Below, piece after piece: positions 2,268-45,340 of a stretch of 64,000 nt of DNA. The DNA is from a virus (lineage: Duplodnaviria > Caudoviricetes): positions 22,311 to 86,310 of the IMG/VR virus record IMGVR_UViG_3300001598_002233; one strand, written 5' to 3'. Position 1 is the first letter of the stretch, and each line of letters begins with the position of its first letter. Made by a program: the position numbers and the translations under genes. A model generated the notes under the pieces. The model was not told the DNA's origin and did no database searches. It saw nothing but the letters and a program-made list of their open reading frames with translations.

Positions 2268-2767
2268 TTAGATATGTTAAAGAAGATACAACAGTAGCAT
2301 TTGCTGAAATCCCTAATGAGACCAGCCTTTGTCTTAACATCTCAAATTGCCAAAATTCTTGTGTTGGATGTCACAGTCCGTATTTAAAGAAAAATATTGG
2401 GGAATATCTTGATTATGCTGAACTTGATAAGTTGGCTAAGGAAAATGAGGGTATTACTTGTATTTGCTTAATGGGAGAAGGTAATGACTTTTGCGATATT
2501 ATCCATTACGGTGCTTATATTCACAATATCTTAGGCCTAAAGTCGGCTGTTTATTCAGGAAGGGAAGATATTCCCGAAGCAGCATATTGGGATGTATTCG
2601 ATTATATCAAAATTGGCCCATATAAGGCCGAATTTGGGCCCTTAAACTCAAAGACAACCAACCAACGCCTATACCATCATAATGGCGAGAAAGAGGCTGA
2701 AATTGAGATTAATGGGGTAAAGCATCAGGGATGGACTGATATAACTCACAAGTTTTGGGAAAAATGA
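2264..2767 (+). CDS. nrdG: Anaerobic RNR activating enzyme (radical SAM)
   Basis: CQNSCVGCHS CxxxCxxC motif, YIKIGPY and TTNQRLY motifs; ATGA overlap with the nrdD stop. Confidence 0.93.
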   Translation: MIRYVKEDTTVAFAEIPNETSLCLNISNCQNSCVGCHSPYLKKNIGEYLDYAELDKLAKENEGITCICLMGEGNDFCDIIHYGAYIHNILGLKSAVYSGREDIPEAAYWDVFDYIKIGPYKAEFGPLNSKTTNQRLYHHNGEKEAEIEINGVKHQGWTDITHKFWEK

Positions 2768-3549
2768 GAAAACTCATAATAACAGAGGGCCAAGCAAAAG
2801 AGATACTTGGAGGGCGATTTTTAAGGGAAAGTAAGAGTGTGCTTGATATTTTTAATGTTAAGAGAACACCGTTATTGGAGGCTTATTATGCTACTTATCC
2901 CATAAAAAAGGTGGTGGAATACTTAACGAAACATTTTTACCTAAGTCAAGATTATCAAAATTTTTTGAATAATAGTGAAAAATATCAAGGGTTTATAACT
3001 ATTACAGAGATGGAAAGTGGGGAAGAAAGTATTAGTTTAGTATTTCCTAACGGGGAATATCCTTTAAAAAAATTGGGTGAAGCGATGTCGTTATGTGGCT
3101 ATTATGAAAGTGATAGAAAAAAGATAGGTGAAATTGGTGGGGTAGAGTATGTGAATATAAATTTTGAAAAACGCCATCAAGATAATGTTTCTGAAAAGAT
3201 TAAGGGAGAGTATAAGTATCTTTATCATATAACTTTGAAAGAAAAAGAAGATAAGATAAGAAGAATAGGCTTGGTTCCAAAGGCGTATAATAAGCGAAGT
3301 AATCATCCAGAAAGAGTTTATTTAATACCAAGTAATAGCCCAATACCGTATTTAATGTTTCATTTTTATCAAGTAGGAAAAATGCTTTATCCTGATAAAA
3401 ACAGTTTTATTGTTTGTGGCATTGAGACTAAAGATTTGGATTGTGAATTTCATTTTGACCCCAATATGGAAAGTGCAGTATATATAACTGAAAATATCTC
3501 GCCACAAATATTGCACATAAAAGATATAATTGTTAAAAACCAAGCATAA
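2764..3549 (+). CDS. Putative ADP-ribosyltransferase-fold protein (Tpt1/DarT-like) with N-terminal KLIITE motif
   Basis: C-terminal YLYHIT..KIRRIGLVP..RVYL..DPNMESAVYITENISP matches the H-x-T / GL / VYL / IPP-like pattern of ART-fold proteins. Start moved from the TTG at 2755 to the ATG at 2764 (ATGA overlap). Confidence 0.55.
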   Translation: MRKLIITEGQAKEILGGRFLRESKSVLDIFNVKRTPLLEAYYATYPIKKVVEYLTKHFYLSQDYQNFLNNSEKYQGFITITEMESGEESISLVFPNGEYPLKKLGEAMSLCGYYESDRKKIGEIGGVEYVNINFEKRHQDNVSEKIKGEYKYLYHITLKEKEDKIRRIGLVPKAYNKRSNHPERVYLIPSNSPIPYLMFHFYQVGKMLYPDKNSFIVCGIETKDLDCEFHFDPNMESAVYITENISPQILHIKDIIVKNQA

Positions 3550-3561
3550 TGCTTGGTTTTT
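3535..3561 (+). terminator. Intrinsic terminator after the nrdD-nrdG-ART unit
   Basis: AAAAACCAAGCAT-A-ATGCTTGGTTTTT inverted repeat with T-run. Confidence 0.7.
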
Positions 3562-3585
3562 TGTTGCCTATTTCAAATATTTTTG

Positions 3586-3593
3586 CTATTTAT
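3586..3593 (+). promoter_or_regulatory. CTATTTAT motif (candidate late promoter) upstream of the glycan locus
   Basis: Same 8-nt core as the motifs at 13426, 40161, 40847 and 56861; lies ~20 nt before the ATG at 3613 and just after a terminator. Confidence 0.45.
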
Positions 3594-3612
3594 TTAAAAA
3601 TGCGTTTTTGTC

Positions 3613-6600
3613 ATGACAAGTAAATACGAAAAATATATTCCATTAATTAAGGAAGTCTGTAAAAAGAAGGGATTTGATATTGACCTCGAACACCCAACAA
3701 CTATTCAGGATAAACTAAACTGGTATAATATCTACGATTATCCTTCAAGGAAAACCAATTGCACTGATAAATATTTATTGCATAAACATTCCGAGACAAA
3801 ACTTGGAAAGGATTTTTGTATTCCAATGTATAAGGTATATAAGAATGTGCTTGAAATTGATTGGAAATCACTCCCTAATAAGTTTGTGATAAGGTGCAAT
3901 CATGGTAGTGGAATGCATATTGTTGTCAGAGATAAAAGCAAGGCTGATATTTCGGGTATAATGGCTCAGTTAAATAAGTGGATGGAGGAAGATTATACTT
4001 TCAGAAATAATTTCGAGTTCTGTTATCACGAGATAGAGCATAGAATTATGGTTGAGGAACTTCTTGAAGACCCTTCACAGCCAAAGTTATTGCAGACATT
4101 CAGATTTTGGTGCTTCAATGGTAAGGTAAAGTTTATGTCAGTACAAGAGGGTGAGTTCGGCCCTATCAACCATTATGATGCTGATGAAAATTTTATGAAA
4201 TGGTTATCAAGAACTGATTATCCTAGCCAATACAAGTCTGATTATTTTATTCCGTATAATTATGATGCAATGAAACTTTATGCAAGGAGACTTGCAGAGG
4301 ACTTTGAATTTGCTTGTGTTGACTTTTACGAGGTTAATGGAAAACCATATCTAAAGAAGATGTGTTTCACGCCTAACGCCAATTATTTTCTATACAAAGA
4401 GGTGGAATCTAATTTTAAGGTTGGGAAAATGTTAACTTTGGGGATAAAGGGGGAGAATGAACACCAAGGAACATATAAGATGTTTGAAACATTGCTTCCA
4501 AAGCCACAGGTGAAGCCAATAGCAGCAGAAAAGTCCGTGGAAGTAAAGCCAAAAGTGGAGCAAAAGCCAGTTAATAGTCAACCACAACCGAAGGTTAATA
4601 CCCAAAAGGTAGAAGCATTAATTGAGAAGAAGGTAAAAGAAATACTTCAAAAGAAAGTAAAAGAGGACGAGGCTAAAAAAGTGGTTAAGCCTGTTGGCAG
4701 ACAAGTATATTACGGAAGTAATTTATTAAGCGGAGGCATTAGTAGCCCTTCAGATAATATAATACCAAAAGCATATCCTAAAAAGACGACATTTTTAGGT
4801 TCTAACGATGAATATTCTGTTTCTGATTCAGAGAAAATTATAGAGCAGAAGGGTAGTATGGAAAAGCCAGAAACTTCTCTTAAAATATCGTTATCTTCCA
4901 TTTTTAAAGACGATGCACAAGCAATTGATTATCTAAAAACTGAGGTGTTGAAGGATAAAAGTATTTTCTGGGAGGTAAATAATGCTATTGAGGAAAATCG
5001 CAGAATGAACCTTATCAAGAGAGAAAGTGTGGAGAAGGTTATTTCTGATTATGTTTGGAAAAGCACAAACAGCATACTGAGTGAAGATATTGCCACGGAA
5101 GATGGTAGATTTATCCCACAAAAGTTTGAACAGCCTAAAAATATCATAGCAAGTGAAAATGTGGTATATGAGACCAATTTAACAACATACCAAAATAGTT
5201 TCAATCTTAATGGTATAAAGAAAGAGGTACCCATGGAGGTTGAAGTTGAGGAGGTAGAGGAGGAAAAGGAATTTTTCATTGCCGAGGGAAATAGTGAAAC
5301 TATTAATCTTTGTATAATTCACTATAACACACCGAAATTGACAGAATGTCTTATTAGGAGTATAAACAAATTCACACCCAATTGTGTTATATATATATTT
5401 GATAATAGTGATAAGGAGCCATTTACCTATAGGCAGGATAATATAATTTATTTGGATAATACAAAGGGACAATATATTGATTTTGAAAAATGGTTACAGA
5501 AATATCCAAATAGGAAAAGGTCCCCAGAAGCGACGCATCAATTTGGTAGTGCAAAACATTGTGTAAGCGTGGAGAAGTGTATGGAATTGATTGACAAGAA
5601 TTTCATATTACTCGACTCAGATATTCTATTGAAGAAAGATATTTCCGTATTTAATGATAATAAATATATATTCGTTGGAACAACAGAAAAACAGCCATTT
5701 GTAGGAATCAGTAGGGTACTTCCGTTTGTGTGTTTCATTAATGTTGACGCTTGTAAATTTTATGATGTCCATTATTTTGATGAAAATCGCATGCACGGCT
5801 TATTCAATAATGCAATTATTGCAAATGCAGACCATTATGATACTGGCGCAGCGTTCTTATATCACGCAAAGCCTTACCCACATAAAGAAATTGACTATAG
5901 GGGCTATATAGAGCATTTTAAGGGTGGCAGTTGGGAAAATATTTCTTCAAGACGAGGCAATCGAACAATGTCATCGAAAGATTGGCTTGCTAAATTCAAA
6001 AACTTATGGGACGACACCAAGCCATTCCGTAAAGTTGTTTATACTTGCATTACTGGTGGATACGAGAGTCTTAAGAAACCAAGTTATGTGAATGCTGATT
6101 TTGACTACATATGTTTTACTGACGCTGATATCAAGAGTGACTTTTGGCAGATAAGACCATTACCAAAGGAAACGGAGGGGTTAAGCAATGTTAAAAAACA
6201 AAGATATGTAAAGATTAATGCACATAAGGTGCTTCCAGAATATGACTTCTCTGTTTGGATTGATGGAAATGTTGACATCAGGGGAAATATTAATGAATAT
6301 ATTGCAGCAAACTGTCAACGAAGCAAAGGCGTAATTTCAATAGGAACGCACCCAGAAAGAGATTGCACTTATGAGGAAGCAAAGGCATGTGTTCATTACA
6401 AGAAAGACACAATGGACAATATGGCAGAGCAGATAGATTTCTACAGAAAAGAGGGACTTCCTGAACATTATGGGCTCGTACAGACTTGCATTGTGTTTAG
6501 ATATCATAATGACGAACAATGTGTACAACTAATGGAAGAGTGGTGGAATGAACTATATTCCCATAAGAGTCATAGAGACCAACTTTCAATAAGTTATGTG

Positions 6601-6687
6601 CAATGGAAAACGGGAATTAGGATAAACAAGTTAGATAAATCAATTTTCAAAAATAAATACTTTTGGTGGGGGGTAACACACAGATGA
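3613..6687 (+). CDS. Multidomain glyco-enzyme: TupA-like ATP-grasp + low-complexity linker + GT2-like + DUF616 (TOD1/MUCI70-like) glycosyltransferase
   Basis: N-terminus TDKY..LPNKFVIRCNHGSG..FWCFNGKVKF (TupA-like); middle INLCIIHYNTPKLTECLIRSI..YIFDNSD..ILLDSD (GT2); C-terminus VVYTCITGGY..DYICFTD..VWIDGN..HPERDC..RDQLS (DUF616). Confidence 0.8.
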   Translation: MTSKYEKYIPLIKEVCKKKGFDIDLEHPTTIQDKLNWYNIYDYPSRKTNCTDKYLLHKHSETKLGKDFCIPMYKVYKNVLEIDWKSLPNKFVIRCNHGSGMHIVVRDKSKADISGIMAQLNKWMEEDYTFRNNFEFCYHEIEHRIMVEELLEDPSQPKLLQTFRFWCFNGKVKFMSVQEGEFGPINHYDADENFMKWLSRTDYPSQYKSDYFIPYNYDAMKLYARRLAEDFEFACVDFYEVNGKPYLKKMCFTPNANYFLYKEVESNFKVGKMLTLGIKGENEHQGTYKMFETLLPKPQVKPIAAEKSVEVKPKVEQKPVNSQPQPKVNTQKVEALIEKKVKEILQKKVKEDEAKKVVKPVGRQVYYGSNLLSGGISSPSDNIIPKAYPKKTTFLGSNDEYSVSDSEKIIEQKGSMEKPETSLKISLSSIFKDDAQAIDYLKTEVLKDKSIFWEVNNAIEENRRMNLIKRESVEKVISDYVWKSTNSILSEDIATEDGRFIPQKFEQPKNIIASENVVYETNLTTYQNSFNLNGIKKEVPMEVEVEEVEEEKEFFIAEGNSETINLCIIHYNTPKLTECLIRSINKFTPNCVIYIFDNSDKEPFTYRQDNIIYLDNTKGQYIDFEKWLQKYPNRKRSPEATHQFGSAKHCVSVEKCMELIDKNFILLDSDILLKKDISVFNDNKYIFVGTTEKQPFVGISRVLPFVCFINVDACKFYDVHYFDENRMHGLFNNAIIANADHYDTGAAFLYHAKPYPHKEIDYRGYIEHFKGGSWENISSRRGNRTMSSKDWLAKFKNLWDDTKPFRKVVYTCITGGYESLKKPSYVNADFDYICFTDADIKSDFWQIRPLPKETEGLSNVKKQRYVKINAHKVLPEYDFSVWIDGNVDIRGNINEYIAANCQRSKGVISIGTHPERDCTYEEAKACVHYKKDTMDNMAEQIDFYRKEGLPEHYGLVQTCIVFRYHNDEQCVQLMEEWWNELYSHKSHRDQLSISYVQWKTGIRINKLDKSIFKNKYFWWGVTHR

Positions 6688-8072
6688 TGACAGAGCAACC
6701 GATTACAATTCAAGAAAAATTACAATGGCTTAAAGAGAATGATAAGAATCCATTGAAAGAAAAATGTAAGGACCAATTAAAACTAAGAGAATGCCTAAAG
6801 TCTGTTTTAGGCAAGGACTTTTGTGCACCTGCATTAAAGATTTATAAGTCTTCAGCATATATTGAATGGGATAAACTTCCAAAGAGTTTTGTTATTAAGT
6901 GTAATCTTAATGATAAGAGCATTTTTGTCAAGGATAAAGATTCGGCTAATAGGGGCAAAATTAATAAGGAAGTAGATTCGTGGCTTATTGATGAACAACA
7001 TAAGATTGTAATTGAGAAATATGTTGTGGATAAAAAAGAGTTATTAAAATTTGGACTATGGTATTTTAGCGGGGAATTAAAATTCTATGAGGTGAAGGAG
7101 GGAGATAATGGAAGGTACTGCAATTTTTATGATACTCAAAATAGGTTCTTAAAAAAGTTTTTGGTAAAAGGGTATGTTAATGATGAAATGATTCAATTCC
7201 AAAGGCCCCCACATTTTGGCTTGATGAAAGAGTATGGAAAAAAACTTTCTAAGCCATTTAAATTTGTTATAATTAATTTTTATGAGGGTAATGGGGAACT
7301 ATTTGTCGATAATTTTTGCTTTGAACCCTATGGCGGGGATTTTTCTTTCGAAAGGCCCGATATAAATCGTTATGTGGGGGATTTTCTCAATTTGGACTTA
7401 GAATTAAAGAAAAAGGTTATATATACTTGTATTACTGGCGAATATGAAACGCCTTATGTTCAAGAGTGTGAGAAACAGCCCAATTTTGATTATATTTGTT
7501 TTACAGATTCTAATATTCAGAGTGATTTTTGGGAGATAAGGCCATTGCCAAGAGGACTTGAGGGCCTTAGTAATGTTAAAAAACAGAGATGGATAAAGAT
7601 AAATGCCCACAAGATATTGCCAGAATATGAATTTTCCATTTGGGTTGATGGGAATGTAAAAATGGGAGGTAATATGAATCAGTTCTTATCTGAAAACATA
7701 ACGAATAAACCTTATAAGTTTTATGTCGGAACACATCCACAAAGGGACGATGTATATGAGGAAGGAAAGGCTTGCATAGAACTTAAAAAAGATACCCCCG
7801 AAAATATCCACAGACAGTTAGATATTTATAAGAAAGAGGGCCTTCCAAGTCACTATGGAATGGCTCAGACTTGTATGTTATTTAGATGGCATAATAATGA
7901 AGAATGTATAACATTAATGGAAGCGTGGTGGGACGAGATGGAGAAATACGGTCATAGAGACCAATTATCGTTTCCTTATGCATTATGGAAAACAGGAATT
8001 AAGATTGGATTCTTAGATAAGAAAATATTTAAAAGTGAATATTTTAGAAGAATTCCACATAATAAAAAGTAA
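6684..8072 (+). CDS. Degenerate TupA-like ATP-grasp fused to DUF616 glycosyltransferase-like domain
   Basis: IEWDKLPKSFVIKCN at the N-terminus; VIYTCITGEY..DYICFTD..IWVDGN..HRDQLSFPY at the C-terminus. Start placed at ATG 6684 (ATGA overlap). Confidence 0.78.
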   Translation: MMTEQPITIQEKLQWLKENDKNPLKEKCKDQLKLRECLKSVLGKDFCAPALKIYKSSAYIEWDKLPKSFVIKCNLNDKSIFVKDKDSANRGKINKEVDSWLIDEQHKIVIEKYVVDKKELLKFGLWYFSGELKFYEVKEGDNGRYCNFYDTQNRFLKKFLVKGYVNDEMIQFQRPPHFGLMKEYGKKLSKPFKFVIINFYEGNGELFVDNFCFEPYGGDFSFERPDINRYVGDFLNLDLELKKKVIYTCITGEYETPYVQECEKQPNFDYICFTDSNIQSDFWEIRPLPRGLEGLSNVKKQRWIKINAHKILPEYEFSIWVDGNVKMGGNMNQFLSENITNKPYKFYVGTHPQRDDVYEEGKACIELKKDTPENIHRQLDIYKKEGLPSHYGMAQTCMLFRWHNNEECITLMEAWWDEMEKYGHRDQLSFPYALWKTGIKIGFLDKKIFKSEYFRRIPHNKK

Positions 8073-8084
8073 AAATAGTAAATT

Positions 8085-8567
8085 ATGATTACATACACAA
8101 TAGAAAATGCTCAAAAACAAGGAATGAAAGTTGGAAAAAATGTGGGATTTACAGATACACCCAACTTTGGCTCAGAGCCTTATCTAATAGAAATTGGGGA
8201 TAATACAACATTTAGTTTCGAGGTTGCCTTTGTCAATCACGATGCGGCGACACGTGTTATTAGACAACTTCCAGACGGCGACCCGAATACAATTATATAT
8301 GGAAAAATAAAAATAGGTAAAAATTGCTTTATTGGGTGTAGAACTACTTTATTACCAGGAATAGAAATTGGCGACAATGTGGTAATTGGGGCGGGAAGTG
8401 TGGTCAATAAGTCAATTCCTTCAAATTCCATTGCTGCAGGAGTACCTTGTAAGGTAATATGTAGTTTAGACGAATATCGAGAAAAGCATCAGGATGATTT
8501 TTTATATATGGTAAATTTACCATATAATGAAAAAAAGAAATTCTTAACAGAGCATTTTGGTGATTAA
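8085..8567 (+). CDS. Left-handed beta-helix (hexapeptide repeat) acyltransferase, polysaccharide O-acetyltransferase type
   Basis: FGSEPYLIEIGDN, KIKIGKNCFIG..LLPGIEIGDNVVIGAGSVV..IAAGVPCKVI hexapeptide repeats. Confidence 0.9.
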   Translation: MITYTIENAQKQGMKVGKNVGFTDTPNFGSEPYLIEIGDNTTFSFEVAFVNHDAATRVIRQLPDGDPNTIIYGKIKIGKNCFIGCRTTLLPGIEIGDNVVIGAGSVVNKSIPSNSIAAGVPCKVICSLDEYREKHQDDFLYMVNLPYNEKKKFLTEHFGD

Positions 8568-8593
8568 TAATAAGAGTTTAAAGTACATAAAGA

Positions 8594-9448
8594 ATGAAAG
8601 ATATTAAAGTTGCAATAGGTGCTATTGCTAAATGCGAAAACCTTTATATTCGTGAATGGGTGGAATACCATAAAAATCTTGGTATATATAAGATATTTTT
8701 ATACGATAATAACGATATAGACGGGGAACGGTTTGAAGAAGTTATTGACGATTATATTAAAAATGGCTATGTTACTATAGTGGATTATAGGGGGCGTAAG
8801 AATGACCCTAATGGAGATTTACATCATATGCATATAAATCTCCAATCACAAATGTGCAACCATTGTTATAAAATAGTTTCTGAAGAATATAAGGAAATTG
8901 ATTGGCTTGCTATTATTGATATTGATGAATTTATTGCTTTCAGCAATGAATTTAAGAACATAGGTGAATTTTTATCACAGGATATATTCAAGGATTGCGA
9001 ATGTGTAAGGCTTAATTGGAAGATGTATGGGGATAGTGGGTATTATAAAGTCGAAAATGGTAATTATTCAGTTGCAAGATTTAAAGAGTGGAAGATAGAT
9101 AAATTAGGGAAGTCAATATTTAAAACTGGATTATCGCATTTGTATGGCATAATAGAAGGGCATGGGTCTTATGTTTCTGTAAATTTTGATGAAGAGGGAA
9201 ATAGATTACCGATTTTTAATAATCGTATATCAATTGTTAATCCCAATCCCAAGTATTTACATGCTTGGATTAATCATTACAAATCAAAAACAATAGAAGA
9301 ATTTATAATTAGGCGATGTGTCATTAAAGATTTGGTGCCTTTTATTGAATACAAACCGATTTCATTTTTTTTATACAATGAAAGGACTAAGGAAAAAGAA
9401 GATTGGGCAAAAATTATTTGTAAAAAATATGGAATAAAGTATGAGTAA
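8594..9448 (+). CDS. Glycosyltransferase, GT2-like / Glyco_tranf_2_4 / GT92-like
   Basis: IAKCENLYIREWVEYH..FLYDNND..DWLAIIDIDEF (DxD motif)..WINHY. Confidence 0.85.
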   Translation: MKDIKVAIGAIAKCENLYIREWVEYHKNLGIYKIFLYDNNDIDGERFEEVIDDYIKNGYVTIVDYRGRKNDPNGDLHHMHINLQSQMCNHCYKIVSEEYKEIDWLAIIDIDEFIAFSNEFKNIGEFLSQDIFKDCECVRLNWKMYGDSGYYKVENGNYSVARFKEWKIDKLGKSIFKTGLSHLYGIIEGHGSYVSVNFDEEGNRLPIFNNRISIVNPNPKYLHAWINHYKSKTIEEFIIRRCVIKDLVPFIEYKPISFFLYNERTKEKEDWAKIICKKYGIKYE

Positions 9449-10157
9449 ATGTATATATTTTCCGCCTTCTACGGAAGAAGCAAACAAGGAATTTATTAAG
9501 GATAAAGAAGAATTTTTATCTCGTAATGATTCACTTATATTAGATATGAATAAGTTGCAATTTTATGACAATTGGGAGCATAATGAACTGCATATTACAA
9601 CAGAAAGTCATTATACTTATATTTTACCTGAAATGGGAAAATTTCTCGGCTTCAACTATGATATAAATGATTTTGAACTAATAGAGAAAAAAGATAGGAC
9701 AGGAAATTTTGATATAAGTTATTTATTCCCTAAAAAGAACAAGAAATTTAAAATAGCCTTTCAAGATAAACAATATATGTGTGGGTATGAGGGAATGATA
9801 GGTTTTAATAATGCAGAAAAGTGCGAAAAAGATTTTTTTGATAATACAAGTTTTAAAGAGATGAACCCAGATTATCATCTTTTGTTTTTTGCATCACATC
9901 AGTGCTGTGTAATAGAAAATTTAGATGAAAATAATGGGAAAACTGTAGTAATTAGTGGGGATTCGCAACTCATACCAGATGTACCAATATTAGCATATTA
10001 TTATAAAAAAATAGTATATTTAGATAAGCGTAGAGCAGATTATGGTTCTGTTTTATTTAATATTTCCAGAAAAGATGAGGTTGTTTATGTAATGTCTAAA
10101 TATGACCTTGCTAAGTATACAGACATAAATTCCAAAAAATGTAGATTTATAGATTAA
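9441..10157 (+). CDS. Hypothetical protein in the glycan locus, possibly SGNH/AlgX-like
   Basis: 238-aa ORF coupled to its neighbours; VVISGDSQ resembles the SGNH block I (GDS). Assignment is weak. Confidence 0.5.
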   Translation: MSKCIYFPPSTEEANKEFIKDKEEFLSRNDSLILDMNKLQFYDNWEHNELHITTESHYTYILPEMGKFLGFNYDINDFELIEKKDRTGNFDISYLFPKKNKKFKIAFQDKQYMCGYEGMIGFNNAEKCEKDFFDNTSFKEMNPDYHLLFFASHQCCVIENLDENNGKTVVISGDSQLIPDVPILAYYYKKIVYLDKRRADYGSVLFNISRKDEVVYVMSKYDLAKYTDINSKKCRFID

Positions 10158-10160
10158 ATT

Positions 10161-10841
10161 ATGAATAAGAATGTTTTTTATACTTGTATAACGGGAAAAT
10201 ATGAAATTCCATTTGAGAACAAATGTCAAAAATTACCAGACTTTGATTATATTTGCTTCGCTGACACTGATATCAAAAGTAATTTTTGGGAGATAAGGCC
10301 GATGCCTAAGACACCAGAAGGCTTAAGTGATGTTAAAAAACAAAGATGGGTAAAGATAAATGCTCATAAGGTGTTACCAGAATATGAATTTTCAGTATGG
10401 GTTGATGGTAATATATTTATGGGAGGTGATATGTCAGCATTTTTAAAAAATACAGTATTTAACTTTCCTTATAGTTTTTTTGTTGGGAAACATCCAGAAA
10501 GAAATTGCGTTTATGAAGAAGCAAAGGCATGTATTAATCTAAAGAAGGACATAAAGGAGAATATAAACCCACAAATGGAGGCATATAAAAAGGAAGGGCT
10601 CCCTGCTCATTTTGCCTTAGCACAAACTTGTATGCTATTCAGATATCACAATAGGGAGGATTGTATTAAATTAATGGAAACTTGGTGGGCTGAAATGGAA
10701 AAATATGGCTATAGAGACCAATTATCGTTCCCATATGCTGTGTGGAAAAATCCAGATGTTAAAATTGGGTGGATGGATAAACGTATTTTTTGTAGTGCAT
10801 TTTTTAGGAGAATACCACATAATAAACAGAAGAAATCTTGA
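10161..10841 (+). CDS. Stand-alone DUF616 glycosyltransferase-like protein
   Basis: VFYTCITGKY..DYICFAD..VWVDGN..HPERNC..RDQLSFPY; close paralog of the C-termini of 3613-6687 and 6684-8072. Confidence 0.85.
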   Translation: MNKNVFYTCITGKYEIPFENKCQKLPDFDYICFADTDIKSNFWEIRPMPKTPEGLSDVKKQRWVKINAHKVLPEYEFSVWVDGNIFMGGDMSAFLKNTVFNFPYSFFVGKHPERNCVYEEAKACINLKKDIKENINPQMEAYKKEGLPAHFALAQTCMLFRYHNREDCIKLMETWWAEMEKYGYRDQLSFPYAVWKNPDVKIGWMDKRIFCSAFFRRIPHNKQKKS

Positions 10842-10879
10842 CATTTTGCCTTATATTTCTTATTTTTAAAGAAAAAGTA

Positions 10880-11668
10880 TTGGCAAAGAAGATTATCATA
10901 TTATGTATGTCCTGCAATATTGAGCGATTCAGAAACGAAGAGCAGGTAATAAAGGAAACATGGGGTAAACCTATTATAGAGGGGGACCCTGATGTTTCTA
11001 TTTATTTTTATAGGGGTGGGTGCAATATGAATGTGGTAAATGACAAAACACATGAAATACTTTTAAGTTGTGGTGATGGCTTAGATAATACATTTGAAAA
11101 AACGATAAAGGCTTTTCTTGGCATAAACAGAAAAGATTATGATTATGTTATCAGAACTAATACAACCACATATCTAAATATTCCATTATTAAAGCAAGTA
11201 ATAGAACAATTAGATAATACGGCACAATTTTATGGGGGAAGACTGGTCAGTAATAGGAAGAGTGAGTATGTGCCTTTCTTTAGGGGGTGCTTTATGATGT
11301 TTCCGAAGTCATTAGTCACAGAATTGTTGGAAGTGGTTCCCAAGTATGGGGTGAAAGGTGTTGATGATATTGACATAGCGAAAATACTCTGCAACGAAAG
11401 AAGAAAAGATGGAAATCTTAAAGAGTATATAGAATTATTGAGGGAGGCACCAGGAATAGAGAAGATAAGCGAAACTGATTTCTTAGAGAAGGTAAAAACT
11501 GCATATTATATTAGAGCGAAGGAAAATAAAACTGGCGAAAACCATGTGGCTATTTTTAAGGTGCTTCACGAACTATTATCAGGATTAAATTGTGAATATG
11601 AGGTTACAATGCCACATAAAGTTACAAAGGTAGAAACAATAAAAGGAATAATTAATTTGAATATATGA
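10880..11668 (+). CDS. Putative GT-A fold glycosyltransferase, GT31/galactosyltransferase-like
   Basis: IIILCMSC..GDGLDNTFEKTIKAF..YDYVIRTNTTTYLNIPLL..FYGG..FFRG..DDIDI pattern. Likely TTG start at 10880; the ORF track begins at 10838. Confidence 0.6.
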   Translation: MAKKIIILCMSCNIERFRNEEQVIKETWGKPIIEGDPDVSIYFYRGGCNMNVVNDKTHEILLSCGDGLDNTFEKTIKAFLGINRKDYDYVIRTNTTTYLNIPLLKQVIEQLDNTAQFYGGRLVSNRKSEYVPFFRGCFMMFPKSLVTELLEVVPKYGVKGVDDIDIAKILCNERRKDGNLKEYIELLREAPGIEKISETDFLEKVKTAYYIRAKENKTGENHVAIFKVLHELLSGLNCEYEVTMPHKVTKVETIKGIINLNI

Positions 11669-13341
11669 CAACATTATTGTGCTGCATAGGCAGAAAAGAG
11701 AACAGATACATACGAGAGTATGTTGAGTGGTATAAGCATTTAGGGTTTACAAACATTGTTATTTATGACAATAATTATGATGGGGAAGACAATTTCCGTG
11801 ACGTAATTGGTGATTATATTGATAGTGGATTTGTAATTATAAAAGATTACAGAAATAGAACGATATGTCAACACGAGGCATATAACGAGTGTTATAGAGA
11901 ACACGGAGATAGTTACGATTGGATTGCCTTCTTTGATTGTGATGAGTTCTTGACATTGCCCAGAAAGAAAGATATAAACACGTTTTTGTCTTCAATATTG
12001 TTTAGGAAGTATGATATGATTCATGTGAATTGGATGAGTTACGGTGATAGTGAAAATATCTATTATGAGGACAAGCCACTTACGGAGAGATTTCCTAGTC
12101 CAGTAAAGCCATATGACTTTAAGAAGACCTATAATTTCCCAGACAACAATCATATTAAGAGTATTGTTAGGGGTGGATTAAAAACTGTGTTGTTTGGTAA
12201 TAGAGGGTGGTCCCATACACCGAGTGGAGTTGCTACTTGCTGCACAGCAAAGGGAATTGCTTGTGACCCCAATTCACCCTTCACACCGTTTGACTTTACA
12301 GAAGCATATTTAAGACATTATGTAACAAAGAGTACGGAAGAATATGTAGATAAACTTCGTAGGGGTTTTCCTGACCAAGAATTCAATCCTGAAAGATTTA
12401 AATATCTTGTGGAACTCTATTTCAAGATAAATACAAAGACACAGGAAAAGATGGATTATTTCAATGAAAAACTTGGAATGAATTATGCAGCCAAGAGAGA
12501 TGATGTACAGATATTTACATTGTGCTACGATAAGAAAGATTATGAGTTTATGGAGGATTCCGTGATTACTCCCCTTCAGTGTGGTGCTGCAAATGGTAAG
12601 GATGTGTGTAAGGTAAAGGATAATACGGGGGATAATATTTCTGGCCAGAACTATGTTTATATTGAAAATACTGGCGTTTATTGGATTTGGAAGAATGTGA
12701 AGAACGCTAAGTATAAGGGAAATATGCAGTATAGGAGACTTCTTGAGGGTGTTAATGAGAACATGAACTTTAATGAAGTATTTAAGAATTATGATGTAAT
12801 TACTTGTGTACCATTTAATCACCCAGAACATAAAATACCAAAGTTCCAAGGAGATGCAATTATTCCTGCTGACACGGTAAGAGAAGGTTATACTTTTAGT
12901 AATTGTGGTGCTGATTTGGATATTATGGAAAAGGTTGTTAAGGAACTATATCCTGATTATGCAGAATCGTGGGATAAATACATTAATAATGGTGAGAACC
13001 TTTATTATTCTTGTGGATATGTTCTTAGGGCTGAGGATTATGACCGATATGCTGAATTCCTTTTCAGATGTGGTGCGGAGTTTTTGTCAAGAACGGAGAT
13101 TAGAGATGAATTCAGTTTATATCTGCATGTTGCAATTGATATGGGCAAGGGGCTCTATCCAAAGATTGCGGGTCATGACCCCCACGATATACTAAAATCT
13201 GGTTTTGACTTTTTAAGATGGGAGAAGAGTATTTTAGGATTTTTAGGGGAACGACTATGGACATTATGGGTGCAGCATAACTTCACTCGTGACAGAATTA
13301 TGGAAGTCCCATTTAAGAAAGTAGAAAATCAATGGATTTAA
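11665..13341 (+). CDS. GT2_4/GT92-like glycosyltransferase fused to a DUF4422 domain
   Basis: N-terminus IGRKENRYIREYVEWY..DWIAFFDCDEF; C-terminus PLQCGA..DNTGDNIS..YIENTGVYWIWKN..QYRR..GFLGERLW (DUF4422 pattern). Confidence 0.8.
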   Translation: MTTLLCCIGRKENRYIREYVEWYKHLGFTNIVIYDNNYDGEDNFRDVIGDYIDSGFVIIKDYRNRTICQHEAYNECYREHGDSYDWIAFFDCDEFLTLPRKKDINTFLSSILFRKYDMIHVNWMSYGDSENIYYEDKPLTERFPSPVKPYDFKKTYNFPDNNHIKSIVRGGLKTVLFGNRGWSHTPSGVATCCTAKGIACDPNSPFTPFDFTEAYLRHYVTKSTEEYVDKLRRGFPDQEFNPERFKYLVELYFKINTKTQEKMDYFNEKLGMNYAAKRDDVQIFTLCYDKKDYEFMEDSVITPLQCGAANGKDVCKVKDNTGDNISGQNYVYIENTGVYWIWKNVKNAKYKGNMQYRRLLEGVNENMNFNEVFKNYDVITCVPFNHPEHKIPKFQGDAIIPADTVREGYTFSNCGADLDIMEKVVKELYPDYAESWDKYINNGENLYYSCGYVLRAEDYDRYAEFLFRCGAEFLSRTEIRDEFSLYLHVAIDMGKGLYPKIAGHDPHDILKSGFDFLRWEKSILGFLGERLWTLWVQHNFTRDRIMEVPFKKVENQWI

Positions 13342-13346
13342 TATGG

Positions 13347-13372
13347 AAGCGTGGTTTTGCCACGCTTTTTTC
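13347..13372 (+). terminator. Intrinsic terminator closing the glycan locus
   Basis: AAGCGTGG-TTTTG-CCACGCTT followed by a T-run. Confidence 0.85.
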
Positions 13373-13422: not shown

Positions 13423-13435
13423 AAACTATTTATAG
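13423..13435 (+). promoter_or_regulatory. AAACTATTTATAG candidate late promoter upstream of baseplate genes
   Basis: Identical 13-mer at 40158-40170 and 40844-40856, each just upstream of a plus-strand gene start. Confidence 0.65.
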
Positions 13436-13449
13436 GAAATATTGTGAAT

Positions 13450-13827
13450 ATGATACAAAAATTCGGAATAAAATACCCTTTTACCTTGGAGAACAACGAC
13501 GAACTATATATGGATGTGAATGATTCATATACAGATATGGTCAAATCTAATGTTCTCCATGTGCTTTTTACACCAAAGGGGCAGAGATTAATGAATCCTG
13601 ATTTCGGGACAGATTTGGTGAGGTTTTTATTTGATGCAAACGATGATATTACATTAGACGACCTTAAATCTTCTCTCAAATCAGATATATCAAAATATGT
13701 CAGTGGGGTTGAATTTAACGATATCTCCATTTATAATGATGGGGAGAATGGAAGGGTGGTAGTTGTTCATTATACCGTCGTTAGAGGCAATAATAAGGAG
13801 CAAACAAGCGTTGCTGTAAAAATATAG
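13450..13827 (+). CDS. Baseplate wedge protein, T4 gp25-like (GPW/gp25 family)
   Basis: GIKYPF..VKSNVLHVLFTPKGQRLMNPDFGTDLVRFLFD is the typical gp25 signature; ~125 aa. Confidence 0.92.
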   Translation: MIQKFGIKYPFTLENNDELYMDVNDSYTDMVKSNVLHVLFTPKGQRLMNPDFGTDLVRFLFDANDDITLDDLKSSLKSDISKYVSGVEFNDISIYNDGENGRVVVVHYTVVRGNNKEQTSVAVKI

Positions 13828-40873: not shown

Positions 40874-43800
40874 ATGGGAAAATTAACATTAAATAAACAC
40901 TACAGTACACCTTCGCAATGTATAAGCAATTTTGATGCGATATATGGAAAAAGTGAAGTTATCGTTTGCAATGACATAGACCAACCTGGTATATATATTT
41001 ATACCACGGGTGCTTCAGGCAACAAGGCTATAAATGTAATGGATATGTCTGTTATAAAATTAAAGGCTAATCCTAGTACAGCAACAACAGGTGAAGTTGT
41101 TTCTGGAGATACTCTTGAAAACATAGTTTCAAAACTTCAGAATAAAATAAATGCAGCTTCTGGCGTTTCAAGTGGTATAACTGAAAAGGTGGAAAATATT
41201 ATTATAGGCGTTGGGCTTAATCCTGATGGTACCTATAAAGCAATTACTGGTAAGTATGTCAGCACCGCAACAACAGTTGCAGATGCTATTACATTATTGA
41301 GCAATGCTATTGAGAATGAAAAGGCAGATGCTATTGCACAAGGTAAGACATATACTGACACAAAGGTACAAGAGGAAATTGAGAAGCTTGACGCTGAGGC
41401 TAAGGCCCCTCTTGGAGGCGTATTTACTGCAATTACCGAAACAGATGGTAAAATTAGTGCAGATACGCAGATGCTTGCAGTTGAACTTAACCCCGCTATG
41501 ACTACTTCTAACCACTATGACTTCTATCTTAGTGGGGGTACTTCAAGGCATAAATGGGGTGAAATTGATGTCCCCAAGGACCAATTCTTAAAGGATGTTA
41601 GTTTCATTGCAAGTGCGACTTCTTCTGATATTACAACAGCCCATGACCGTGGATGTATCATTGAGTTGGGTAAGGCTTATCTTGTATTTAACTTCACAAC
41701 TTCAGCAGGAGATAAGTGGGTTTATACAGATATGACAAGCCTCGTTAGAGGATTAACTGCTAAGGATATTAAAATTTCTACTGCATATACAAAAACCTCT
41801 TATAATATTAAAGCAGGTACTCCAACTGAAGATGCTATTAATGAAATTACTGAAGAACTTGATAAACTTAACGAAAAGGCTTCTGCTATTACAATTACAT
41901 CTACAGGAAAGACCATTAATATCACTACAGGTACAACAGGTACAAATGTTGATGTTTATATAGACAACGAGTCAATCGTAACAAACGAAAAGGCTCAGTC
42001 TGGACAAGAAGGTAGACTTAGTACATATATTAATATTAAGCGTGATATTGAGGGAGCAAAAGAGGCAACTGCAAGTACTAGAATGACATATCACCTTGTT
42101 AAATCAGGCGGTACTTATTATGGTGGTGGCTCTGAAACCTATATGACAACCGATATTGTGATTCCTCGTCACTTTATTACTCCCGACGAAGCAACTGGCC
42201 CTGGTAAATGGGTTAAGGTTGGAACATCAGCTGAAACAGCTATTGGTAGATATGTTGTTGATACAACCAAGATTGGCCTCGCTGTTCAGGAGAATATTAA
42301 AAATGCTCTTGGTGAGACAGAAGCAATGGGTAATGGCCTTACCACTGCTTGGGCTGTTAGAGAGTTTATGAAAGAAGGTATTGACGGTGATGATGTTATG
42401 GTAGGTTGGGCAGACCACCTTCCTGGTAGCCTTTTATCATACTATGGTAATATCGCAGACGGACATATATTAGGACCTGTTGCAAAGGCAAATAATGTGC
42501 ACGAAGCAGTATGGAAGGTCAATAATAACTTTGATAGAGTTGCTGACTCCATTGGGCTAGTAAATCTTAATTTTACAGCAAGTACATATGTTGATGATGT
42601 ATATAAATACGATTCTGCAAATACACAAGCATATAGATATATTTCTGGCGCAACTACAGTGATGGGAGCAATCAAGAAACTTGATGATAATATTGCAACA
42701 GAATGGGGTGACTTTGCAAATAAGTCAATTAGAACAAGGCAAACAGGGTGTGAGGCAATAGGCAAGGGCTCATTTGCTGAAGGTAGTGGGACAACAGCAG
42801 AGGGTGCAACGTCTCACTCAGAGGGCTATTTAACAAAGGCACAGGGTGCACAATCACACGCTGAGGGTAATACAACCATTGCAAGTGGTGTGGATTCTCA
42901 CGCAGAAGGTAATAATACAAAAGCACAGGGCAACGCTTCACATTCTGAAGGATATTTTACAACTGCAACAGGAAATGGCTCTCACGCAGAAGGTAGTGCA
43001 ACAACCGCAAGTGCAGTCTATGCACACGCCGAAGGACAAGGCACAACAGCTAGTAAGGGTAGTGCCCACGCTGAAGGCCTTAATTCGGTAGCAGACGGTA
43101 TTGCAGCTCACGCTGAAGGTACAAGTACAGAAGCAAGCAAGGATAATGCACATGCTGAAGGACAGTTAACCAAGGCAAAAGAAGTTTATTCACATGCTGA
43201 AGGTTATTCAACCAACGCACTTAGTGCAGCAACGCACGCAGAGGGATATCAAACAAGTGCTAATGGACTCGCAGCACACGCTGAAGGTAAGTCAACGACA
43301 GCAACAGGCGATACAGCCCACGCTGAGGGCTTATCCACAACAGCATCTGCTGCTCAAGCACACGCTGAAGGTAATACAACTACTGCAAGTGGTGTGGATT
43401 CACACGCAGAAGGCAATAATACAAAAGCACAGGGTGCTGCCTCACATTCTGAAGGTACAACTACAACAGCAGTTACAGCCAATGCCCATGCTGAAGGCTT
43501 AACTTCTAAAGCAAGCGGAAATGCTTCTCACGCTGAAGGTAATACAACTACTGCAAGTGGTGATAATGCACACGCCGAAGGACATTTTACAGTCGCAAGT
43601 GGTATAGACTCACATGCTGAAGGTAATGCAACAACAGCAAGCACAACAAATGCTCATGCTGAAGGCCAATCTACCCAAGCAAACGCCACTGCTGCTCACG
43701 CTGAAGGTGGATTATCCGTTGCTGGGGGAATTGCTTCACACGCTGAGGGTAGTGCGACAACCGCAAGTGGCGTAGCATCTCACGCTGAAGGTACAAGCAC

Positions 43801-45340
43801 GGTTGCTTCAACCGCTAATTCTCATACAGAAGGTCTTGGCACAAAGGTTTCCAACACGGAAGAGCACGCAAGTGGTAAATATAATGCAACTGAAGCAGGA
43901 CAGATATTCTCAATCGGTATTGGTACATCAGATGCTGCAAGAAAGAATGCAATGTGCTTTTCAACAAGTGGTACTGTTAAGGGTGAAACAATCCTTACAA
44001 CCAAGGAGCAATTGTCTGCACAAACAACTACAGGAAAACTTGTAGACGCAAAGGCTGTTAATGACTTATTCAATTATCAAAGAGGTTGGAGTGCTATCAC
44101 ACTTAGTGCAGGTAACACAATTAAGGCAGATAATAATGGTGACACAATCACTATTAGTGGCAATACTTATGTTGATGTCGTTGGTACAGACGACCCTGAA
44201 AAGATACAAATTACAACTGATGTTGCTGACACCAAGGCTGCTCTTACTGCAGCAACTGCAAACAATCAATTAGCAGGTGCTTATGGTGTTAGAGAGTGGA
44301 TTCAGTCTCTTGATAAGACAGGTGTGACAACAACGGGACAATTCCTTCGTTATGTAACTGAGGCAGACGGTGTTGTTGCTGAGGTTAAGGGTTATATTAA
44401 GGATACTGATGTTAAGATTAGTGCTGTTACCCCTTCTTCTACAAATGTTAAAGAAGAATTTGCCTTATTTAATGGAAACAATGTAGAACTTGGAAATCGT
44501 ATTAAGATTTATAAGGATAGTGCATTTGTTAGAGCATATATAGGTACAATGGGTGACACGATTAACAATGACACTGGTGTTGTAACACCTGGTACAGGAA
44601 GTGAATCACTTAACATTATCCATCTTGATGTGAATGGTAAATATCAAATGGTTAAGATTGACCTTGAGACATTTGTGATAGAAACAGAATTCAAGGATGG
44701 TCTTAAAGTTTCTGGCCATAATGTTTATGTGACTGTTGATACGAATTCAGAAAAAGATGATGAGGGAAAACATTTCTTACAGGTACTTTCTGGCGGTGTA
44801 GAGGTTAGAGGCATTAATAACCAAATTGCTCGTAGAATTAATGAACTTAATGCAAGTGTATCTTCTAATGACCAAGGCGTTGCTGTGACCGTTGCTGAAA
44901 CTAACGGTAAACTTTCAGGAATCGCAGTTGCCGTTACTACACTTGATACAGATACAGCAATTACATCTGCTGCAACTTCAGTTGTTTCTGGTAAGGGTGT
45001 TCGTGCAGCAATTGATGCTCTTGATTCAACAGCCACAACAACAAGCAATGCTTACGCTCTTACATCAGTTACAATTACTAATGGTAAGATAAGTGCAAAG
45101 GGAGAAACCAATAAGATTGCCTCTGCTTCAACTGCTGCTTCTGCAGATACTCTTGATGGAAAACACGCGACAGACCTTCTTACAGAATTTACCAATACTT
45201 CAACAGGAACTAATGGAGAATCAAGAATTACTGTTGGTGGAACATCTAAGACTTGCAAAGTCAATGCAGATACCGTTGATGGTTATCACTTTGTTGTGGG
45301 TTCAACAGGAACTACAGCAAATACAATTTATTTTCTTTAG
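40874..45340 (+). CDS. Tail fibre / adhesin with trimeric-autotransporter (YadA/Hep_Hag) head-type repeats
   Basis: About 27 consecutive 14-aa repeats xGxxSHAEGxxTxA followed by GKYN..IFSIGIGTSDAARKNA neck-like motif. Confidence 0.85.
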   Translation: MGKLTLNKHYSTPSQCISNFDAIYGKSEVIVCNDIDQPGIYIYTTGASGNKAINVMDMSVIKLKANPSTATTGEVVSGDTLENIVSKLQNKINAASGVSSGITEKVENIIIGVGLNPDGTYKAITGKYVSTATTVADAITLLSNAIENEKADAIAQGKTYTDTKVQEEIEKLDAEAKAPLGGVFTAITETDGKISADTQMLAVELNPAMTTSNHYDFYLSGGTSRHKWGEIDVPKDQFLKDVSFIASATSSDITTAHDRGCIIELGKAYLVFNFTTSAGDKWVYTDMTSLVRGLTAKDIKISTAYTKTSYNIKAGTPTEDAINEITEELDKLNEKASAITITSTGKTINITTGTTGTNVDVYIDNESIVTNEKAQSGQEGRLSTYINIKRDIEGAKEATASTRMTYHLVKSGGTYYGGGSETYMTTDIVIPRHFITPDEATGPGKWVKVGTSAETAIGRYVVDTTKIGLAVQENIKNALGETEAMGNGLTTAWAVREFMKEGIDGDDVMVGWADHLPGSLLSYYGNIADGHILGPVAKANNVHEAVWKVNNNFDRVADSIGLVNLNFTASTYVDDVYKYDSANTQAYRYISGATTVMGAIKKLDDNIATEWGDFANKSIRTRQTGCEAIGKGSFAEGSGTTAEGATSHSEGYLTKAQGAQSHAEGNTTIASGVDSHAEGNNTKAQGNASHSEGYFTTATGNGSHAEGSATTASAVYAHAEGQGTTASKGSAHAEGLNSVADGIAAHAEGTSTEASKDNAHAEGQLTKAKEVYSHAEGYSTNALSAATHAEGYQTSANGLAAHAEGKSTTATGDTAHAEGLSTTASAAQAHAEGNTTTASGVDSHAEGNNTKAQGAASHSEGTTTTAVTANAHAEGLTSKASGNASHAEGNTTTASGDNAHAEGHFTVASGIDSHAEGNATTASTTNAHAEGQSTQANATAAHAEGGLSVAGGIASHAEGSATTASGVASHAEGTSTVASTANSHTEGLGTKVSNTEEHASGKYNATEAGQIFSIGIGTSDAARKNAMCFSTSGTVKGETILTTKEQLSAQTTTGKLVDAKAVNDLFNYQRGWSAITLSAGNTIKADNNGDTITISGNTYVDVVGTDDPEKIQITTDVADTKAALTAATANNQLAGAYGVREWIQSLDKTGVTTTGQFLRYVTEADGVVAEVKGYIKDTDVKISAVTPSSTNVKEEFALFNGNNVELGNRIKIYKDSAFVRAYIGTMGDTINNDTGVVTPGTGSESLNIIHLDVNGKYQMVKIDLETFVIETEFKDGLKVSGHNVYVTVDTNSEKDDEGKHFLQVLSGGVEVRGINNQIARRINELNASVSSNDQGVAVTVAETNGKLSGIAVAVTTLDTDTAITSAATSVVSGKGVRAAIDALDSTATTTSNAYALTSVTITNGKISAKGETNKIASASTAASADTLDGKHATDLLTEFTNTSTGTNGESRITVGGTSKTCKVNADTVDGYHFVVGSTGTTANTIYFL
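42761..43885 (+). repeat. 42-bp-period coding tandem repeat (~27 units)
   Basis: Recurrent CA(C/T)GC(T/A)GA(A/G)GG every 42 nt; near-identical ~95-bp blocks at ~42857-42950 and ~43361-43455. Confidence 0.92.

Follow-up and report, generated by a model that had tools for sequence, protein, structure and literature searches.

Virion glycosylation in phages has, according to the accounts in PMC12619734 and PMC12801897 that cite Freeman et al. 2023, been proven only for mycobacteriophages (Che8, Corndog and Myrna). As these accounts present it, the phage encodes soluble glycosyltransferases (GTs) but no export genes, the proposal being that these enzymes modify virion proteins in the cytoplasm, and the gene content varies between related phages. 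In these respects the system resembles the subject of this study, a locus of eight glycan-synthesis genes (g1 to g8, hereafter the island) in a 64-kb window, by which we mean the whole stretch analysed: bases 22311-86310 of the 86,310-bp IMG/VR virus record IMGVR_UViG_3300001598_002233. The window is a fragment of an uncultured, lytic-type jumbo myovirus of the gut or rumen type; the CheckV completeness of the record is 23%, which implies a full genome of about 375 kb. As far as the accounts go, the mycobacteriophage system differs in its enzyme families, in its hosts (Actinobacteria instead of Gram-negative-type Bacteroidota) and in the type of phage, which is not a jumbo myovirus. Its acceptor, a Ser/Thr C-terminal tail of the capsid protein, is not found in the capsid proteins of the window's relatives. 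The island, in turn, has no methyltransferases and encodes polymerase-like two-GT proteins and predicted uronic-acid amidoligases.

Clustered GT genes also occur in other large T4-like phages, namely in the 'cell-wall synthesis and modification' or lipopolysaccharide clusters of cyanomyoviruses (S-SCSM2R with 13 GTs, S-SCSM1 and P-SSM2; PMC12801897) and in the GT-rich 'moraphages' (PMC12619734). The host surface, DNA and the virion have all been proposed as their targets. Since such clusters are published, the original prediction, made from the DNA sequence of the window, went too far in calling the locus the best candidate for an undescribed system. A DUF616-type GT of S-SCSM1 even matches g1. 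However, these clusters contain other GT families and many sugar-nucleotide enzymes, no ATP-grasp fusions have been reported for them, and a hypervariable island at a fixed site with a clade-wide core gene is shown for the clade of the window, unlike for the cyanomyoviruses and moraphages. The novel aspects are an enzyme set with fusions of GT116-like and TupA-type amidoligase domains, a GT111 domain and a PatB-like protein that has no leader; a clade of jumbo phages in which the GT2+TOD1 core is universal; and the reshuffling that is documented for a fixed site.

Single enzymes of the island have counterparts in bacterial polysaccharide pathways. Cj1438 of Campylobacter jejuni, a TupA-like ATP-grasp domain fused to GT2, amidates the C6 carboxylate of glucuronic acid (GlcA) in the HS:2 capsule (PMC11800379). 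It resembles g1 and g2 in the fusion of a GT to such a domain, a similarity at the family level only; its pathway has Kps export, and its partner is GT2, whereas in the island it is a TOD1/GT116-like domain, sometimes together with GT2. The GT111 domain of g8 is shared with Klebsiella WbbM (6U4B) and Kingella PamA, and WbbM is likewise fused to a second GT (PMC12269835). In g8, the partner is GT92-like and not GT8, the domain order is reversed and there is no O-antigen export context. The pamAB locus has a UDP-galactopyranose mutase gene beside the GT111 gene (PMC12269835), as does one relative of the window phage, L025.

The island is not a seroconversion cassette (gtrABC, oac), as transmembrane proteins are missing from the islands and tyrosine integrases from four relatives. 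In giant viruses, the multi-domain GTs of chloroviruses and the clade-specific clusters of Megavirinae build bacterial-type glycans on virion proteins in the cytoplasm. The virus-encoded multi-domain GTs and the clade-specific content of these capsid and fibril systems are reminiscent of the island, and GT31-like relatives of g7 also occur in Nucleocytoviricota. Giant viruses differ in their eukaryotic hosts and unrelated virions, and homology extends to one family only.

A fixed-site island with a universal core

The island consists of eight + strand open reading frames (ORFs), 3613-13341, which at their junctions overlap by at most 8 nt or are at most 26 nt apart, and it constitutes one operon of soluble enzymes. 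It is bounded by two terminator-like hairpins (Table 1); none of 200 shuffled sequences folded as well as either. The domain total is eight GT-type domains, two TupA-like ATP-grasp domains, one left-handed beta-helix (LbH) O-acetyltransferase and one PatB/DHHW-like SGNH-fold protein. The tight gene coupling, the bounding terminators and the domain list that had been read from the sequence are thus upheld, the latter by Pfam, alignment, Atlas features, structure models and Foldseek.

Relatives were collected by an alignment-based scan of IMG/VR, which gave 387 related stretches, several of them on 363-412 kb contigs rated 94-100% complete; complete relatives measure 363-412 kb. Their loci (L numbers) were compared by tblastn of window proteins, followed by Pfam. 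The order nrdD-(nrdG)-island-gp25-baseplate J, for which a synteny check across jumbo relatives had been proposed, is kept in L018, L025, L031/L024, L032 and L033, and the island contents differ. In L018 there are only two genes, GT2+TOD1 and GT92. L032 has an 814-aa GT2-ATPgrasp-TOD1 fusion and a g8 ortholog, and L031 an ATPgrasp+GT2 protein, a fusion of TOD1 with a g5-like domain, a GT31 and a g8 ortholog. The L033 island combines a TOD1+GT31 fusion with a separate ATP-grasp protein, a NADAR protein, a GT11 and a GT92, and that of L025 a 916-aa GT92+pyruvyl-transferase+GT2 protein with separate ATP-grasp and TOD1 proteins, a phosphoribosyltransferase-domain protein, a GT31, the UDP-galactopyranose mutase and a g8 ortholog. 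Within the subclade of the window, the number of island genes therefore ranges between 2 and about 9 and the fusions are shuffled, the extras being UDP-Galp mutase, pyruvyl transferase and GT11. The NADAR-domain protein (L033 5906-6487, E 3e-41) and the phosphoribosyltransferase-domain protein (L025 11915-12790) lie inside these islands.

The core gene GT2+TOD1 is present in every relative examined, and its divergence (about 50%) is like that of baseplate J (52-62%). TOD1 was found in all five genomes searched, in the island only, and in none of 14 control bacterial and archaeal genomes. The window phage has three copies, 54-67% identical to each other versus about 50% to their orthologs, which suggests a local duplication. 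In a subclade with genomes of 387-412 kb, GT2+TOD1 is a lone gene, located between the exonuclease and UvsX genes or adjoining the portal gene. The island of the window is an expanded form of a glycan module with a bifunctional GT2+TOD1 core, the accessories of which are reshuffled at a fixed site.

The claim that the locus is self-contained is not established, given the incomplete record and the sugar-nucleotide genes that relatives carry elsewhere. A second glycan locus of a 364-kb relative (L161, G002:C1:218001-238000) lies on one strand around a T4-like portal gene. Its genes, with which UvsX is interleaved, encode an RmlB-like 4,6-dehydratase, RmlD, a further epimerase and four proteins of the GT2/GT92 type.

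Domain composition and proposed chemistry

Pfam matches above the cut-off are ATPgrasp_TupA (twice), TOD1_MUCI70, formerly DUF616 (three times), Glyco_transf_92/Glyco_tranf_2_4 (twice), DUF4422 and Hexapep. In g1, a TupA-like ATP-grasp domain (aa 34-262) is followed by a Lys/Pro/Glu-rich spacer and a region without assigned domain (about 285-560), a GT2-like domain (about 565-790) and TOD1/MUCI70 (806-1013). The GT2-like domain is of the GT-A type; when it is aligned with 13 homologs, carriers of PF00535 among them, D668-S669-D670 is invariant. The metagenomic homologs of g1 number more than 100 and are 40-60% identical; they mostly have the same ATP-grasp+TOD1 fusion, and several are on contigs of 260-393 kb. 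With a cut-off of 25 bits, the ATP-grasp profile PF14305 scores 84 bits in g1 (profile 2-230 of 241) and 37 bits in g2 (1-238 of 241). The PF04765 copies score 65-76 bits, where the cut-off is 21.4, and cover the C-terminal half of the profile only (about 149-308 of 314). Sequence searches of the PDB with g1, g2 and profile A1 gave no meaningful match. The model of g6 has a GT-A fold, nearest to the retaining GT6 and GT8 enzymes (Foldseek: BoGT6a, GTA/GTB, LARGE1, XXYLT1).

The other genes are assigned on varied grounds. All NCBIfam best matches of g3 are below their equivalog cut-offs, and its copies in related phages are 65-73% identical. The g5 family, of 183 representative clusters, is without Pfam match and mostly viral in Atlas. 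Its model (pLDDT 93) matches 4NZK (DHHW) and 5V8D (Bacillus cereus PatB1) in Foldseek (E 1e-8, probability 1.0, TM-score about 0.58), and a 50-sequence alignment contains near-invariant HH, D174-S175 (GDSQ), D195 and R197. For g7, which has no Pfam match and belongs to almost wholly viral clusters, the assignment comes from language-model (Atlas) features (0.98) and structure (TM-score 0.82). The DUF4422 domain of g8 scores 119 bits with PF14393 and matches WbbM 6U4B in phmmer (E 4.8e-14 over residues 280-371); the g8 orthologs located before gp25 in L025, L031 and L032 are 50-52% identical.

From these families a chemistry can be proposed by analogy, with moderate confidence. The retaining GT-A TOD1/GT116-like domains would add a hexuronic acid, as MUCI70, which founded CAZy GT116 as a rhamnogalacturonan I galacturonosyltransferase (bioRxiv 10.64898/2026.09.18.752628), does in plants; as far as that source reports, citing Amos 2022, UDP-GalA transfer is known for plant MUCI70/RGGAT1 only. 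The cis-fused TupA-like domains would then amidate the C6 carboxylate of the uronic acid with an amine or amino acid, in the manner of Cj1438 on GlcA. It is the recurrent cis-fusion of the two that suggests addition followed by amidation, and ATP-dependent amidation by g1 and g2 is inferred from their family and from their fusion to a GT116-like domain in both proteins and in more than 100 homologs. Further hexoses would be added by the GT2-, GT92- and GT31-like domains, and galactofuranose (Galf) by the GT111 domain of g8, from UDP-Galf of the host. The mutase gene (GLF) that adjoins the g8 ortholog of L025 fits Galf transfer; neither the window record nor any of four near-complete relatives has this gene, so that the supply of UDP-Galf would fall to the host. 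O-acetylation of the chain would be carried out by g3 (LbH) and g5 (PatB-like), and g5 appears to be tied to the same glycan by the L031 protein in which TOD1 is fused with a g5-like domain. The least certain step is the assembly of the chain, which would take place in the cytoplasm on an acceptor made by the phage, most probably one virion protein or several. The outcome would be a lineage-specific surface glycan, a 'serotype' of each phage.

Table 1. Coordinates of the island genes and of the elements that border them (window positions)
Feature	Position	Strand	Basis and remarks
NrdG-like ORF after nrdD, 167 aa	2264-2767		C-x5-C-x3-C-x2-C (CLNISNCQNSCVGC), with CX3CX2C cluster; no Pfam match
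Terminator-like hairpin	3535-3561	+	12-bp stem and U-run, -13.8 kcal/mol, z -4.3
TAnnTTTG octamer (TATTTTTG)	3578-3585	+	Abuts CTATTTAT; no -33 TTTG at 17-22 nt
CTATTTAT promoter-like motif	3586-3593	+	27 nt before the g1 ATG
g1, 1024 aa	3613-6687	+	Pfam and homolog alignment
g2, 462 aa: TupA-like ATP-grasp + TOD1/MUCI70	6684-8072 (alternative start 6663)	+	Pfam; ATG overlaps g1 stop (ATGA)
g3, 160 aa: LbH sugar O-acetyltransferase (WbbJ/LacA/Maa-like)	8085-8567	+	Pfam Hexapep
g4, 284 aa: GT92/Glyco_tranf_2_4 GT-A glycosyltransferase	8594-9448	+	Pfam
g5, 238 aa: leaderless SGNH-like PatB1/DHHW/AlgX-type glycan O-acetyltransferase (or esterase) fold	9441-10157	+	Model, Foldseek, alignment
g6, 226 aa: stand-alone TOD1/MUCI70	10161-10841	+	Pfam; model pLDDT 92
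g7, 276 aa (or 253 aa from ATG at 10907): GT31/Fringe-like galactosyltransferase-type GT-A	10838-11668	+	Atlas features, structure
g8, 558 aa: GT92/GT2_4 (aa 10-225) + DUF4422/GT111 (aa 290-480), WbbM-like two-GT protein	11665-13341	+	Pfam
Terminator-like hairpin, operon end	13345-13369	+	11-bp stem and U-run, -14.8 kcal/mol, z -3.9
Next CTATTTAT motif (AAACTATTTATAG)	13426-13433	+	Precedes gp25-like baseplate gene 13444-13827

The acceptor of the glycan

A simple Kyte-Doolittle hydropathy scan, which is a crude method, detected no convincing transmembrane segment or signal peptide in g1 to g8, as had been noticed from the sequence, and no transmembrane segment in the island ORFs of four relatives. 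As judged by Pfam and hydropathy, the locus also contains no flippase/polymerase, consistent with the original prediction, and no initiating phosphoglycosyl transferase or ATP-binding cassette (ABC) exporter. Bac_transf (PF02397), Glycos_transf_4 (PF00953) and Polysacc_synt (Wzx; PF01943) are absent from five relatives, four of them 100% and one 94% complete. In a partly overlapping set of four relatives (three complete, one 94%), PF00005 gives only marginal P-loop matches and no convincing ABC exporter, and there is no tyrosine integrase. The one bacterial context that was annotated, a rumen Bacteroidales locus (L109) with an ATP-grasp+TOD1 pair, has an epimerase, a protein with ten transmembrane segments and two GT2 genes beside it. 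In comparison with this locus, what remains in the phages is the set of cytoplasmic enzymes, the membrane steps having been lost.

As neither priming transferases and flippases nor real ABC exporters or integrases were found in the complete relatives checked, five or four genomes per family, assembly in the cytoplasm on a phage-made acceptor suggests itself. That the island glycosylates a virion protein or another phage protein is the leading reading, to which we give somewhat less than an even chance. It is favoured by the missing priming and export genes in the complete genomes checked and by the lytic-type gene content; by the clade-wide core gene that diverges like structural genes, the phage-type promoter and the partly virus-specific families; and by the precedents of mycobacteriophages and giant viruses and the TupA-like enzyme reported to act on protein (CfmP/FimA; PMC13419641).

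The same solubility is open to a second interpretation. A lack of transmembrane segments in GTs does not discriminate, since enzymes working on lipid-linked acceptors are also soluble and ABC pathways make use of generic exporters. The island could therefore serve to remodel the host envelope, its soluble GTs extending or replacing a lipid-linked host intermediate (undecaprenyl-diphosphate- or lipid-primed) of O-antigen or capsule at the cytoplasmic face. A host priming enzyme and a generic exporter, of the ABC-transporter type or a tolerant Wzx, would complete the pathway, which might for example block superinfection or the re-adsorption of progeny to debris. Doubtful in our estimate, yet only slightly less likely than the leading reading, this explanation draws on the fact that all families present (GT2, GT92, GT111/WbbM, GT116, TupA amidoligase, LbH and PatB-like acetyltransferases, and the pyruvyl transferase of relatives) are polysaccharide enzymes with cellular homologs in surface-polysaccharide loci, that one relative has dTDP-rhamnose-type enzymes, and that the GT clusters of cyanomyoviruses have been read in this way (PMC12801897). 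WbbM and Cj1438 are moreover two-GT polymerases of ABC-transporter pathways, the exporters of which do not read the polymer (PMC11800379, PMC12269835), so that a phage need not encode its own. Yet no priming, flippase, polymerase or exporter gene was found in the complete relatives checked, and without a tyrosine integrase in four relatives there is no benefit from lysogenic seroconversion. The universality of the core gene in the clade and its divergence in step with structural genes would also be unusual for an accessory host-modifying gene, and CTATTTAT is phage-type, unlike the host-type promoters of the minus-strand genes.

Several findings weigh against a virion acceptor. Neither an acceptor nor a protein-initiating O- or N-glycosyltransferase family was recognised, and the gp23-like capsid proteins of four relatives (G001-G004) are without a Ser/Thr C-terminal tail; the window record itself contains no capsid gene and covers less than a quarter of the genome. 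Characterised members of every island family act solely in (lipid-linked) polysaccharide synthesis, where the GTs likewise lack transmembrane segments, and a phage could borrow a generic host exporter of an ABC-type pathway. PatB/AlgX-type enzymes are normally extracytoplasmic, although g5 has no signal peptide or transmembrane segment and the islands have no membrane protein by hydropathy, with no search aimed at MBOAT made. Finally, the core gene of the 387-412 kb subclade sits elsewhere, even among replication genes, and the promoter-like motif of the island is shared with nrdD and gives no sign of late timing. The proposition that soluble enzymes favour a virion acceptor hence survives in part only: the phage operon is soluble and has no export genes, but this does not discriminate, and the capsid tails are missing in the four relatives.

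The position of the island and its motif also call for a qualified reading. The gp25-like and Baseplate_J-like genes follow directly downstream, in agreement with a location beside tail genes. On the 5' side, however, are the genes for a gp32-like protein, thymidine kinase, a UvsX/RecA-like protein, a 5'-3' exonuclease, a DnaB-like helicase, NrdD and an NrdG-like 167-aa protein. With this replication and nucleotide block on one side and baseplate genes on the other, the island is on a module boundary and not within the tail module. Likewise, CTATTTAT does precede g1 and gp25, and full host-type promoters (TTTG-N17-22-TAnnTTTG) are found only before minus-strand genes, but a TAnnTTTG octamer abuts the motif. 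Seven of its 15 copies in the 86-kb record stand 13-27 nt before start codons, those of g1, gp25, nrdD, a small gene adjoining gp32 and three + strand genes without assigned function. In relatives it recurs before nrdD, the island and gp25. Since nrdD and a small replication-block gene carry it too, the motif is not specific to structural genes, and probable late expression, which had been deduced from it, is not supported by it. PHROGs gave no functional names for the other motif-preceded genes (40174, 40874, 56883 and a 97-aa gene), and CTATTTAT is therefore not tied to structural genes beyond gp25; capsid and portal genes of relatives have no copy within 80 nt upstream. A split into an 'nrdD/g1 type' and a 'baseplate type' was dropped, both forms being mixed in relatives. 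Judged by its distribution, CTATTTAT appears to be a promoter class peculiar to the phage and separate from the host-type promoters that precede minus-strand genes. Outside the window, the regions upstream of the genes at record positions 13739 and 20001 have a near-identical AATATTTTTGTATATTAG element in common, possibly a promoter-like class of a third kind.

This neighbourhood brings in DNA hypermodification, in which the GTs would assemble a glycan on a modified base in the phage DNA as a means of evading restriction. Elaborate cases beyond the T-even phages are said to have been described by Pyle et al. in 2024. The island directly follows the replication and nucleotide module and shares its motif with nrdD, the core GT lies between exonuclease and UvsX in another subclade, and the GT2+TOD1 gene is core to the clade. 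Nevertheless, we consider this explanation highly improbable. A gene of the thymidylate-synthase family (hydroxymethylase) is missing altogether from one complete relative that has the core GT, and in the closest of the complete relatives a full-length ThyA-type match of 330 bits points to ordinary synthesis of dTMP. No island family matches known DNA glycosyltransferases, and we know of no precedent on DNA for modules of uronic-acid amidation, Galf, O-acetylation or pyruvylation.

It could also be imagined that the product is a free or protein-primed polysaccharide released at lysis, as a matrix, decoy or receptor mask, or a glycosylated phage or host protein outside the virion. The polymerase-like two-GT proteins g1 and g8 without an export route, and the heavy investment in glycan genes, including the second locus of one relative, would be in keeping with it. 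As a residual category with no specific sequence evidence and, to our knowledge, no phage precedent, it appears improbable.

Returning to a virion acceptor, we can outline what the island may achieve in its entirety. A clade of 360-410 kb gut and rumen jumbo phages would build a complex acidic glycan, with amidated uronic acid, Gal/Galf and O-acetyl groups, in the cytoplasm on virion proteins with its own enzymes, and reshuffling at the fixed site would create 'serotypes'. This would be the first virion glycosylation in jumbo phages and in Gram-negative-type hosts; taken as a whole, so specific a scheme is rather unlikely. The glycan might act as a shield, or as a bait for glycan-binding surface proteins of Bacteroidota hosts.

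Two large proteins are encoded further downstream in the window. The first, of 1488 aa (40874-45340), is preceded by AAACTATTTATAG and contains more than 20 tandem 'SHAEG-x-TTA(S/T)G' units at about 640-1000, like the head repeats of trimeric adhesins. It is probably a fibre, to judge by these repeats, and its sole PHROG match has no assigned function. Directly after this fibre gene, in a GC-richer stretch, is a gene for a 914-aa protein (45414-48158) with repeated Ig/BACON-like segments ending in '...RSATITF.GGG'. Ser and Thr make up 34% of its residues and, over stretches of 60 aa, as much as 50%. We regard this protein as a candidate for a glycan acceptor or for a decoration protein that binds glycans.

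Phage context and significance

Among 50,697 phage records, megablast found no match to the glycan locus, and the baseplate J protein has relatives of only 24-27% identity (Flavobacterium phage immuto, a 484-kb uncultured phage and a Microcystis phage). As a single-protein query for related loci, g1 alone found no match. The Lak megaphages were rejected as relatives of the island, since they share only a PS_pyruv_trans+GT92 fusion and no synteny; in the Prevotella phage Lak-A2 (L002 13636-15825) this 729-aa fusion is readable only with TAG=Q (10 in-frame TAG). Its GT92 domain is 38% identical to g8, and the L025 island likewise pairs a pyruvyl transferase with GT92. With no more than one GT92 gene, the uncultured phage LR756511 was also set aside.

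As to the flanking genes, the hairpin at the 5' border closes the upstream nrdD-nrdG-u264 unit and overlaps the stop codon of ORF 2755-3549. The ORF after nrdD probably encodes an NrdG-type radical-SAM activase, because it always accompanies nrdD in relatives and has the Cys motif; in L033, island genes are inserted between the two. The DnaB-like helicase ORF of L032 (2633-5131) has 832 aa versus 481 aa in the window, and the match is split by about 1.1 kb, possibly by an intein or a homing-endonuclease insertion. In L025 (3394-5766), the 790-aa nrdD product is only 42-46% identical and matches in two pieces.

The cellular homologs of the island are 30-47% identical (rumen Bacteroidales, Methanosphaera, Lachnospiraceae, Treponema and Alphaproteobacteria); two further matches of 50-51% are on contigs of metagenome-assembled genomes (MAGs) of uncertain origin and may be phage-derived. 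Given this low identity, and since the island does not differ in GC from the remainder of the phage, recent origin from a host capsule locus, named as an alternative in the original prediction, is ruled out. The homologs come almost solely from rumen and gut MAGs, which together with the host-type promoters makes a rumen or gut Bacteroidota host likely. The TOD1 domains of Methanosphaera (L087-L100, rumen and gut MAG contigs) share 41-47% identity with the phage domain, and no bacterial homolog is closer; this GT family is therefore shared across domains within the gut habitat.

If the glycan is on the virion, gut and rumen phage particles would have lineage-specific sugar coats, with consequences for host recognition, stability amid proteases and glycosidases, visibility to the immune system and the way in which phage preparations are designed. 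If the host surface is remodelled instead, a lytic phage would be hijacking generic polysaccharide export. Whatever the target, the fusion of ATP-grasp and GT116-like domains is a widespread, uncharacterised two-step module, with more than 100 homologs and an occurrence that extends to rumen Bacteroidales, Treponema and Methanosphaera. The fixed-site island, in which a universal core is combined with swappable accessories, offers a clean natural experiment on how glycans diversify.

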